A DNA stretch of 64,000 bases from Escherichia phage KIT06. The notes below the pieces were generated by a model that was not told where the DNA came from, ran no database searches, and saw only the letters and a program-made list of their open reading frames with translations. The stretch lies in the sequence record OQ349392.1. One strand, given 5' to 3'. This document shows positions 5,956 through 40,571 of this stretch, piece by piece (position 1 is the stretch's first letter; each line of letters starts with the position of its first letter). Both the position numbers and the translations under genes were made by a program.

Positions 5956-6032
5956 TGAGTAATTTCCATAACGAACACGTGATGCAGTTCTATCGTAACA
6001 ATCTTAAAATTAAAGGCGTCTTCGGACGCTAG
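5955..6032 (+). CDS. stp: Stp peptide (25 aa), activator of host PrrC anticodon nuclease
   Basis: Translation [25 protein letters not shown] is near-identical to T4 Stp as I recall; ATG overlaps ndd stop (TAATG). Confidence 0.75.
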
Positions 6033-6042
6033 TGAGGAAAAT

Positions 6043-6198
6043 ATGAATATCGCAAAATTATTAGGAGTTATTTCATTTATTTGTTGGATAGTAGCATGTG
6101 TTTTAACTATCTGTATTGATGTCAGCAGCGTGTTTTCGCAAGCTTTAGCCCAGGGTATGTGTGCATGTTTAACATTTGCGTTGTTATCTAATGATTAA
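6043..6198 (+). CDS. ac: Acriflavine-resistance membrane peptide (51 aa)
   Basis: 51 aa hydrophobic ORF with SD GAGGAAA; position between stp and gene 52. Confidence 0.65.
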   Translation: MNIAKLLGVISFICWIVACVLTICIDVSSVFSQALAQGMCACLTFALLSND

Positions 6199-6331
6199 GA
6201 AAATCTTGGGCTACTCAGTAGCCCTTGCTGCTTTACTGGTAGCACTATATTATGGAGTAATGTTCGGATTAATTCAAGTCGTGCTTTTCATTTCTGATGT
6301 TATTATGGCACTACATTCACTAGTATGGTAA
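6191..6331 (+). CDS. Small hydrophobic peptide (46 aa), 52.1-like
   Basis: ATG overlapping ac 3' end; hydrophobic; ends 5 nt before gene 52. Confidence 0.4.
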   Translation: MIKKILGYSVALAALLVALYYGVMFGLIQVVLFISDVIMALHSLVW

Positions 6332-6335
6332 ATTT

Positions 6336-39090: not shown

Positions 39091-39237
39091 TATAAATAAT
39101 AATATGAATTGGGTGTCGGAATAATAAGTTAACCGAACAATTCTATGTGGTAGTCTACAACTGAGAGATCTGTCGAAAGAAGATGAAATTCAGAAGAACG
39201 TGACTACCGAGTTTTAATCTCTAACGAGAATTTTTAA

Positions 39238-39486
39238 ATGATTAAACAATTACAACACGCTCTTGAACTGCAACGAAACGCATGGAATAATGGTCACGAA
39301 AACTATGGCGCATCTATTGATGTTGAAGCCGAAGCTCTTGAAATCCTGCGTTATTTCAAACATCTGAATCCTGCTCAAACTGCATTAGCTGCTGAGCTCC
39401 AGGAAAAAGATGAACTTAAGTATGCTAAGCCTCTGGCTTCTGCTGCACGAAAAGCAGTTCGTCACTTTGTGGTAACACTGAAGTAA
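39238..39486 (+). CDS. rIII: rIII lysis-inhibition accessory protein (82 aa)
   Basis: 82 aa, length and position match T4 rIII. Confidence 0.82.
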   Translation: MIKQLQHALELQRNAWNNGHENYGASIDVEAEALEILRYFKHLNPAQTALAAELQEKDELKYAKPLASAARKAVRHFVVTLK

Positions 39487-39841
39487 TTTATTGGAGATTC
39501 ACTGCCTTAGTGTGAGCTAAAATCGAGGAGCCGTCGAACTGTCTGATTAATGATTTGCGAATCATTATAGTTTTAAGACCCCGGCAGTTTTACGGTGTAC
39601 CTCTTGAATGTTATTCTTATAGCGGCAAGTGCATGCTACCCCGAGGTGATGGCTAATCGGGAGTACGCCTCAAGGCCTATATATCCATCAGTATATATCT
39701 TATCCTCGAGAAATCGAACCCGGAACCTTTAAGCTAACGGTGTGCAACAGATAAGAGCTATAAGGTATGATGACGGGTTTATGGTTATCCTGTCGGTAAA
39801 TATTCAAAACCTAAGTACCCCTTTGAGGGCTTTCGCAGGCA

Positions 39842-40060
39842 ATGCCAATAAGTCCTGCATTTTCATTTAAAAGAGAATTTATAATGGCAAAACAAGCTAA
39901 AGCAAAGAAAGCAGTTGAAAAGAAAGTTGGTGATTCTAAACGCGCTGGCTACAAGCGTGGGTCGAACTCTCGTATCAATCAAACTGTTGAGAAGATCATG
40001 CGCCGAGCACGTGCGGTTCTTCGAGATGATGCTTCTCGTTTTGGTAAGCAGAAAGCATAA
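39842..40060 (+). CDS. Hypothetical basic protein (72 aa; possibly 58 aa from ATG 39884)
   Basis: Lys/Arg-rich ORF followed by strong terminator; start uncertain. Confidence 0.45.
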   Translation: MPISPAFSFKREFIMAKQAKAKKAVEKKVGDSKRAGYKRGSNSRINQTVEKIMRRARAVLRDDASRFGKQKA

Positions 40061-40065
40061 GTTGA

Positions 40066-40090
40066 GGACTCCTTCGGGAGTCCTTTTTTA
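40066..40090 (+). terminator. Rho-independent terminator
   Basis: GGACTCC-TTCG-GGAGTCC hairpin plus TTTTTTA. Confidence 0.7.
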
Positions 40091-40113
40091 TTTTCCAAAG
40101 ATTGCACAAAGTT

Positions 40114-40143
40114 GTTTACAGTATAGTTCCTTTGTGATAGTAT
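40114..40143 (+). promoter_or_regulatory. Early promoter (GTTTAC-N18-TAGTAT)
   Basis: GTTTAC 40114-40119, TAGTAT 40138-40143. Confidence 0.55.
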
Positions 40144-40170
40144 TATCTTACACAAACAAAGGAGAATAAA

Positions 40171-40503: not shown

Positions 40504-40505
40504 TT

Positions 40506-40536
40506 GTTTACTTTGGTACAGGATATGATATTATAT
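40506..40536 (+). promoter_or_regulatory. Early promoter with stem-loop (GTTTAC, GGTACAGG/CCTGTACC inverted repeat)
   Basis: GTTTAC 40506-40511; A/T-rich -10 region about 18 bp downstream. Confidence 0.5.
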
Positions 40537-40571
40537 ACCTGTACCGCAATTAAACATCTCGGAGAATAAAA

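Follow-up and report, generated by a model that had tools for sequence, protein, structure and literature searches.

The rIII to 30.9 interval

The window analyzed here, a stretch of 64,000 nucleotides, is a segment of a Tequatrovirus (T4-like) genome that in this region is 99% identical to phage ACG-C40. On its plus strand the genetic elements are arranged in the order cd, 31.2, 31.1, gene 31, rIII, a spacer, 30.9, a terminator, an early-promoter-like site and 30.8. The rIII coding sequence (39238-39486, +) is an ORF that is annotated as rIII in ACG-C40 (99% identical) and T4, and it is the upstream gene in nearly all phages that carry the RNA domain described below. Gene 30.9 (39884-40060, +) encodes a very basic protein of 58 amino acids that matches phrog_1427 (E 2e-31), has homologs in 1005 phage records and gave no match in a Pfam search. 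Translation of 30.9 starts at the ATG at 39884 (MAKQ...), as in the T4 annotation, and the non-coding spacer therefore reaches 39883. A longer ORF beginning at the ATG at 39842, 14 codons upstream of MAKQ, is probably spurious and untranslated; the extension that it would add (39842-39883) overlaps the hairpin HP3 and a putative ribosome-binding-site hairpin. At the nucleotide level, 30.9 is unusually conserved across genera (91% identity to Jiaodavirus, as compared to 77% for rIII), which hints at strong constraint on the tiny basic protein or on its mRNA. Many GenBank records label its product a '1,4-alpha-glucan branching enzyme, GH-13-type', which is implausible for a basic protein of 58 residues. 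The rIII-30.9 transcription unit is closed by an intrinsic terminator with a 9-bp stem and a T-run (40064-40095, +), after which an early-promoter-like site is found (40115-40143, TTTACA-17-TAGTAT). A similar site, GTTTAC...TATTAT, is located at ~40504-40545, ahead of the next gene. The combination of terminator and early promoter at 40061-40145 and the site at ~40504-40545 look like PeSL cassettes of T4-type phages. A promoter scan returned no sigma-70-like promoter within 39487-39883. Another ORF-free spacer, 147 nt long and lacking any ORF of at least 40 aa, separates gene 31 from rIII (39091-39237).

The initial annotation had singled out positions 39487-39841 as the longest stretch of the window with no plausible ORF on either strand. 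This is correct when ORFs of at least 50 aa are counted on both strands (355 nt), but at 60 aa the interval 5956-6335 (380 nt) is longer. The same stretch had been described as GC-rich relative to flanks of about 35% GC. Its GC content of 43.4%, as compared to 36.0% for the window, does place it in the 98th percentile of 355-nt windows, and its central 142 nt reach 47.2%; however, rIII (41.8%) and 30.9 (44.6%) are themselves richer in GC than had been claimed, and the region stands out against the window only. An open frame at 39516-39656, said to lack a start codon, contains a TTG at 39555, though this codon is not conserved. The short inverted repeats that had also been noted are real and correspond to helices that are conserved across related phages.

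A covarying RNA fold at 39615-39765

The central 151 nt of the spacer (39615-39765, +) fold into a structured RNA domain that is closed by helix P1, in which UCUUAUAGC (39615-39623) pairs with GCUAUAAGG (39757-39765). In dot-bracket notation, with square brackets denoting a kissing contact, the domain reads ((((((((((((........(((((((((((([[[[[[))..))))).))).))......)))(((((((]]]]]])))))))(((((((.((((....))))(((((....(.....)....))).))......)))))))))))))))). Within P1, GGC (39624-39626) pairs with GCC (39675-39677) in a tentative helix, P1a, for which there is one compensatory change (GGU with ACC in Yersinia phage fHe-Yen9-01) and one wobble (locus L067). If P1a is real, then P1, P1a, P3 and P4 probably meet in a four-way junction that has no unpaired linkers. 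A conserved internal loop (AAGUGCAU, 39627-39634, opposite CUCAAG, 39669-39674) connects P1a to the P2 hairpin (39635-39668), where 7 of 13 pairs are doubly compensated. The UGAUGG loop of P2 (L2, 39647-39652) kisses the CCAUCA loop (L3, 39685-39690) of the P3 hairpin (39678-39697), in which three of seven pairs are changed on both sides and 97% of the cells are paired. The third arm, P4 (39698-39704 with 39750-39756; five of seven pairs doubly changed), encloses P5, P6 and the joining segment J6/4 (GCAACA, 39744-39749). P5 (39706-39717) carries a GAAA tetraloop of the GNRA type, and all four of its pairs are doubly changed. In P6 (39718-39743), one of five pairs is doubly changed, and an additional G-C to A-U compensation is seen in fHe-Yen9-01. 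The sequence pattern of its internal loop, GAA (39723-39725) opposite UAA (39735-39737), points to a probable UAA/GAN loop; the variable pentaloop that caps it has gained a 3-bp hairpin in one diverged member (locus L031). Among unpaired nucleotides, conservation is highest in J6/4 and in the internal loops of P1a/P2 and P6.

The fold is supported by covariation. In an alignment made by MAFFT and not fitted to the structure, five helices comprising 36 core pairs were evaluated: 96.2% of the cells are paired and 20 of the 36 pairs have changed on both sides, whereas none of 500 shuffled controls reached any of these measures and controls with one strand slid out of register are 26-45% paired. 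An alignment of 29 distinct sequences fitted to the model gave 97.5% paired cells and again 20 doubly changed pairs; over both alignments, the slid controls reach only 24-48%. The frequent G-U pairs assign the structure to the plus strand. Of the 29 distinct flank pairs, 26 form P1 with 4-11 contiguous bp, and the helix is seen in at least eight unrelated sequence versions, whereas cross-lineage pairings average 1.7 bp; the three exceptions, of the PG7 type, form 2 bp followed by an A-G mismatch. All nine lineages have an L2-L3 duplex of 6-7 contiguous Watson-Crick pairs, which occurs in six versions (UGAUGG/CCAUCA, CGAUGG/CCAUCG, CUAUGG/CCAUAG, UGCAUU/AAUGCA, UUGUAUU/AAUACAA and CAAUGA/UCAUUG), where cross-lineage pairings yield 2-5 bp. 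A covariance model built from 22 distinct sequences finds a single match in the 64 kb, at 39621-39762 (165.6 bits, E 7e-40); it detects one copy in each carrier locus and none at the T4, T2 and KP15 loci. The diverged members (mtp5, JC221, L031 and fHe-Yen9-01), which score 95-118 bits, keep every helix by compensation together with the same unpaired nucleotides, so that the fold is evidently under long-term selection and is not merely young. Covariation between lineages thus lends strong support, for the central 151 nt, to one of the origins offered in the initial annotation, a structured noncoding RNA, and we consider it very nearly certain that 39615-39765 specifies a functional structured RNA.

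Likeness to shuffled controls had been named beforehand as a sign against such an RNA. The folding energy of the core is indeed that of shuffled sequence (z = +0.08, with -1.34 for the whole spacer and +1.1 for the minus strand), yet the covariation is real, and energy alone would have led to the wrong conclusion. The single-sequence minimum free energy (MFE) prediction nonetheless draws helices that were later confirmed by comparison. For this domain, z-scores of folding energy are uninformative, and the structure rests on covariation, not on stability.

Several other pairings were considered and set aside. A closing helix between GCAAG (39625-39629) and CUUGC (~39830) was replaced, as flank analysis showed that the true P1 directly flanks the core; the same result led us to drop the idea that the Erwinia phage COW86c and L031 copies are circular permutations, and removed the circular-permutation argument for a ribozyme. 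An inner P2 pair (U27-G32) was superseded by the kissing contact. A pseudoknot between AAGG (J2/3) and CCUU (P6 loop), a contact between UGCAU and GUGCA, and an 11-nt tetraloop receptor (UAUGG/CCUAAG) either show no covariation or are contradicted by variants, and the receptor is moreover not conserved in T4 or JS10. An all-versus-all scan of column covariation was drowned in phylogenetic signal, with K10 and A/U55 as the sole notable pair.

The domain is conserved as an RNA and not as a protein. When the window is compared to Jiaodavirus, Karamvirus or Moonvirus, the core shows 94-95% identity, gene 31 shows 70-75%, rIII 76-80% and 30.9 81-91%; the high cross-genus identity of the core could in part reflect recent horizontal spread rather than constraint. 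'Hypothetical proteins' have been annotated over the domain in ACG-C40 (0208a), Merci (gp117) and COW86c (228), and these annotations are the one argument for a small protein-coding gene. However, no open frame runs through the core, as each of the six frames contains at least one stop in all 33 loci; core length varies between 139 and 151 nt across lineages (142 nt in the main group), with several differences that are not multiples of three and therefore break any common frame; and the internal ORFs match no Pfam or PHROG family. With stops in all frames, variable length and no family match, the three annotated proteins are probably spurious, i.e. annotation errors. Substitutions, moreover, are paired across helices rather than concentrated at third codon positions. 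A decayed gene, which had been suggested for the region, fares no better given the stops in all frames of every member, the lack of family matches for the internal ORFs and the compensatory substitutions. A conserved small protein gene, which had been named beforehand as a finding that would speak against the initial reading, was found neither by Pfam or PHROG homology nor by inspection of the frames. A small or decayed protein-coding gene is in our estimate scarcely credible, and coding or chance explanations are essentially excluded.

Distribution of the domain and its flanking modules

A BLAST search with the whole spacer matches ~990 phage records, only some of which contain its middle part. 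The central 148 nt match ~410 records, corresponding to a domain present in ~400 phage genomes of at least eight genera, whose hosts are Escherichia, Shigella, Klebsiella, Enterobacter, Citrobacter, Salmonella, Yersinia, Serratia and Erwinia. The domain lies between rIII and 30.9 on the coding strand in each of the following carriers: Tequatrovirus ACG-C40, Dhakavirus JS10, Jiaodavirus Merci, Karamvirus PG7, Moonvirus Moon and KM16, Serratia phage PS2 and Erwinia phage COW86c. Comparison with T-even genomes, as the initial annotation had proposed, shows that T4 and T2 do not have the central unit: T4 has a clean gap from 39613 to ~39765 in window coordinates, T2 has 47 unrelated bases in its place, and T6, judged by BLAST coverage, also lacks the domain. 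What is absent in T4 and T2 is exactly the P1-closed domain. Altogether, ~600 of ~1000 phages with 30.9 do not carry it. Among IMG/VR loci with a 30.9 homolog, 13 of 25 carry the domain (filters off), including that of Yersinia phage fHe-Yen9-01, which is a new divergent member.

The domain also occurs at a second locus, between uvsY.-2 and uvsW.1, where divergent copies are found in Slopekvirus mtp5, Pseudotevenvirus GWPR59 and Yersinia phage JC221 and are absent from a close relative, KP15. At both loci the unit of presence and absence coincides with the P1-closed domain. No sign of Slopekvirus was found among the 1005 records with 30.9 homologs. In GWPR59, the domain is followed by ~180 nt without an ORF longer than 33 aa and then by a terminator, and in mtp5 and JC221 the domain stands between a late-promoter-like CATAAATA box on its 5' side and a possible small ORF on its 3' side. 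Upstream of the JC221 copy (800-880), the stretch CCGAGGUGAUAACG resembles the P2 apex of the main-type domain; it may, from its sequence, be a fragment of a second copy, and a minus-strand 'hypothetical protein' is annotated across it. The Slopekvirus locus also contains a perfect late promoter (TATAAATA) and a hairpin (GUACCCGAAAGGGGCUUG) upstream of a conserved region of ~230 nt (KP15, L068, 800-1140; mtp5, L020, 1050-1290; JC221, L021, 1100-1200). Judging from its sequence pattern, this region could encode a small peptide (..LLRRPxEFTFGxVIDxIPSxKG..) or equally form an RNA structure; it has several synonymous differences between mtp5 and JC221, and it contains CAAGGGCAUG, a word shared with the 5' motif of the domain.

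Outside T4-like phages the searches were negative. Two motif scans across 185,579 species genomes of bacteria and archaea gave zero matches, and blastn against 5,426 E. coli genomes and the PLSDB plasmids found no match to the domain. In IMG/VR and the JGI metagenomes, all contigs recovered by motif scans were of T4-like size, apart from chance matches that were discarded; the pattern-scan matches L024, L025, L030, L035-L037, L039 and L041-L053 are of this kind and fall in GC-rich coding DNA. No terminal repeats, target duplications, or endonuclease or transposase genes were found at the domain. The earlier suggestion of a mobile-element remnant is right in part, as the domain behaves as an insertion/deletion cassette, but it is intact and highly conserved and so is no remnant.

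The domain is surrounded by smaller modules. Module U (39493-39523, +), read by eye, consists of a hairpin (UCACUGCCUUAGUGUGA, 39499-39515) and a GCUAAAAU tail. Its stem shows compensatory changes. Jiaodavirus, CIP9 and fHe-Yen9-01 carry the module 5' of the domain, JC221 carries it on the 3' side, and T4 has it as well. A second hairpin, UAAUGAUU-UGCG-AAUCAUUA (39548-39567, +), was read from the sequence and appears in the MFE fold. The Tequatrovirus-specific 5' part of the spacer (39487-39614) is common to T4 and T2 only. On the 3' side, module H (39766-39811, +) pairs GACGGG (39772-39777) with CCUGUC (39789-39794) around a conserved 11-nt loop and is followed by GUAAAUAUUCAAAACC; its stem covaries across 12 lineages. 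Module H is found 3' of the domain in Tequatro-, Karam- and Moonvirus phages and COW86c and 5' of it in Jiaodavirus and PS2, and T4 keeps it. Next comes an ACCCC..GGG hairpin followed by CUUUC (39817-39834, +), which is unique in the 64-kb window. Such ACCC/GGGG hairpins stand beside the domain at both loci, on either side, and also occur in T4 and KP15, which have no domain. The window, ACG-C40 and T2 read CUUUC at position 39833, and T4 and other genera, most relatives among them, read CUUGC. Thus, modules U and H and the ACCC/GGGG hairpin swap sides of the domain between genera and persist in the domain-less T4 and KP15.

HP3 (39835-39868, +) is a variable hairpin (GCAGG, 39835-39839, with CCUGC, 39854-39858) with a U-rich run. 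From its sequence it resembles a weak terminator, and a terminator scan leaves it uncalled, its loop being longer than 8 nt; other genera have longer hairpins of different sequence at this position. An antiterminator pairing of CUUGC with GCAA in HP3 was rejected, being confined to T4-type spacers and not conserved in other genera. Finally, UUUUC (39860-39864) pairs with GAGAA (39873-39877) in the MFE fold, and this predicted hairpin (39860-39877, +) possibly sequesters the ribosome-binding site of 30.9. An analogous UCUCC...GGAAGA arrangement was seen by eye in other genera.

Possible roles and comparison with known RNAs

Although T4-like phages are among the best-studied viruses, this RNA has been overlooked. 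It escaped notice because the laboratory strains examined (T4 and T2, and T6 by BLAST coverage) do not have the domain. It is large, intricately folded and more conserved than the surrounding protein genes, and RNAs with such properties are usually ribozymes, riboswitches or the cores of RNA-protein machines. The behaviour of the domain as a swappable cassette suggests an accessory function at the RNA level in phage-host adaptation.

The explanation that we favor, at just under an even chance and on comparative grounds, is that plus-strand positions 39615-39765 encode an RNA domain of ~150 nt that folds autonomously and belongs to an undescribed family, a cassette whose folded form serves as a partner-binding accessory module. 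The domain would be transcribed within the rIII-to-30.9 message. The comparisons show that P1 closes the fold, that the P2 and P3 arms are locked side by side by the 6-bp kissing helix, and that the third arm, P4, branches into P5, with its GNRA tetraloop, and P6. They also show that this P1-closed unit is gained or lost as a block, in two loci and in differing neighbourhoods. Its function would reside in the folded RNA itself, independent of the neighbouring gene. Most likely it would be a stable accessory RNA with a small ligand or a conserved factor of host or phage as its binding partner; candidate roles are those of a decoy or scaffold (e.g. in host takeover or counter-defence), and it would act either as part of the polycistronic transcript or after release from it. 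A predicted stability equal to that of shuffled sequences counts against this explanation. The more radical idea of a new functional RNA class with a biochemical activity of its own is conceivable but on the unlikely side: the domain could be a self-cleaving ribozyme, or else an aptamer by which a host molecule such as an immune signalling nucleotide or a defence protein is sensed or sequestered. In that case, T4-like phages would exchange a portable, RNA-only accessory module for host adaptation. Natural pairs that are close to isogenic exist, in the form of ACG-C40-type and T4-type spacers, and genome editing of T4 is possible.

That the domain is autonomous, and not a dedicated regulator of 30.9, is plausible though somewhat short of even. 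Activity that is largely independent of the neighbouring gene is indicated by the ~600 of ~1000 30.9-bearing phages in which the domain is missing, by its occurrence where no 30.9 was detected and by its shuffled flanks. The competing account is that of a riboswitch-like, cis-regulatory leader: the domain would be an aptamer for a metabolite, a signalling nucleotide or a protein, possibly gp30.9, and expression of the gene behind it would be switched by the way the aptamer folds, with HP3 and its U-run, or else the putative ribosome-binding-site hairpin, as the effector. This account ranks next after the favored one, but we judge both the aptamer and the gating to be unlikely. At ~400 loci, in at least six genera, the domain at the rIII locus is invariably upstream of 30.9 on the same strand, which fits a cis-regulator as well as an autonomous RNA; like the lysine and purine riboswitches, it has several helices closed off by P1, conserved nucleotides in its loops and a kissing contact between L2 and L3; the start codon is separated from it by hairpins and a U-rich tract; and 30.9 itself is unusually conserved and basic. 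The layout in mtp5 and JC221 is also leader-like, with the domain at the 5' end of a probable late transcript, after a late-promoter-like box and ahead of a possible small ORF. It also counts against the favored explanation that T4, the phage with experimental data, is without the domain. However, a leader dedicated to 30.9 is difficult to reconcile with the many phages that have the gene alone, T4 among them, and with copies of the domain in phages of the Slopekvirus and Pseudotevenvirus-like groups, for which the search gave no 30.9 homolog and where no ORF follows the GWPR59 copy. In addition, any putative expression platform is 50-110 nt away from P1, with variable modules in between, the order of these flanking modules is not fixed, and the sole alternative pairing found (CUUGC with GCAA in a T4-type HP3) is not conserved in other genera. 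The regulatory leader that the initial annotation had listed among its possibilities is thereby weakened.

Two further explanations retain the RNA fold and assign it a different purpose. The domain could be a new self-cleaving or otherwise catalytic RNA that cuts the polycistronic transcript, either separating rIII from 30.9 or defining RNA ends. The analogy rests on a compact, multi-junction fold with a kissing loop and strictly conserved internal-loop nucleotides, similar in size and architecture to the Varkud satellite (VS) and hairpin ribozymes, and on its placement as a context-independent cassette inside phage polycistronic transcripts, both typical of small ribozymes; but no known ribozyme model matches at E <= 10, no candidate cleavage site was identified, and the supposed natural circular permutation, a ribozyme hallmark, proved to be wrong. 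We regard catalysis as improbable. Still less probable is a selfish or neutral cassette that brings the phage little or no benefit, moves among T4-like phages during co-infection by recombination or homing, and owes its conservation to its youth. The clean presence/absence polymorphism at two loci and the near-identity across genera would be expected of such a cassette, and T4-type genomes do shuffle small cassettes. The retention of helices and unpaired nucleotides by deeply diverged members, however, requires long-term purifying selection on the fold, and the repeats, duplications and mobility genes that were searched for are absent.

The domain was compared to known RNA families by sequence, covariance models and architecture. 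The Rfam scan that had been proposed for the region was run with Rfam 15 (4227 covariance models) on 1.4 kb and gave no match inside 39487-39883 at E <= 10; the 161-nt domain sequence alone, with lax filters, gave zero matches at E <= 10, and the divergent members gave matches at chance level only. No description of this RNA was found in the literature that was searched, and neither were RNA-seq data on the carrier genera; it is apparently an undescribed family of structured RNA in T4-like phages, a statement that leaves the list of 10,000 motifs in PMC10690425 outside the comparison.

ARAGORN found no tRNA or tmRNA gene in the whole window, and the architecture also differs, as tRNA is held together by a contact between the D-loop and T-loop, whereas the kissing contact of the domain joins adjacent arms. 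There is likewise no Rfam match to RNase P RNA or to group I or II introns; the domain lies between two complete genes, and T4 shows no joined coding sequence. The domain contains GUGCAACAGA, a word that it presumably has in common with E. coli M1 RNA, but a likeness to RNase P, the M-box or the td intron was rejected because it rested on short shared words and had no Rfam support. None of the self-cleaving ribozymes (hammerhead, twister, twister-sister, pistol, hatchet, HDV-like, hairpin, VS and glmS) matches in Rfam at E <= 10. By analogy, the Varkud satellite and hairpin ribozymes are alike in their length of ~150 nt, multi-way junctions, kissing or loop-docking contact and conserved internal loops, which here would be a candidate active site; the kissing helix of the VS ribozyme, however, has 3 bp, as compared to 6 bp in the domain.

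The closest architectural parallel is to the lysine and purine riboswitches, which also have a P1-closed junction, arms P2 and P3 placed side by side by a loop-loop contact, conserved nucleotides at junctions and internal loops, and usually a position upstream of a gene. The loop-loop contact of the lysine riboswitch contains ~6 bp; the domain is alike, with 6-7 bp in six covarying versions, though this is an architectural likeness only. There is no covariance match to the lysine riboswitch (RF00168), and the L-box is built on a five-way junction, whereas the domain has a probable four-way junction. The domain further shows no sequence or Rfam similarity to these riboswitches, contains an additional three-way junction and has neither a connection to lysine or purine genes nor, as far as was found, a conserved expression platform: the gene downstream is 30.9 (phrog_1427), or there is no ORF at all, and not a gene for lysine biosynthesis or transport. 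The generic riboswitch position, a co-oriented 5' leader, is seen at the rIII locus, but no ORF follows the domain in GWPR59/L032. No conserved alternative pairing that would compete with the helices of the domain was found, and HP3 and the candidate ribosome-binding-site hairpin are variable and far from P1.

Among the mobile units of T4-type phages, the nearest counterparts are the PeSL (promoter-early stem-loop) cassettes, reportedly described by Arbiol et al. in 2010. They are alike in that both are short non-coding units shuffled among T4-type genomes between small genes of plastic regions. However, a PeSL consists of a terminator-like stem-loop and an early promoter, as at 40064-40143 in the window, whereas the domain has no sigma-70-like promoter and is instead a tertiary fold of 151 nt. 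It also resembles the orphan RNA motifs of phages (Rfam; bulk predictions, PMC10690425), which are likewise conserved, intergenic and covarying and have no assigned function, and in their company the domain is unusually large and unusually well supported by comparison.
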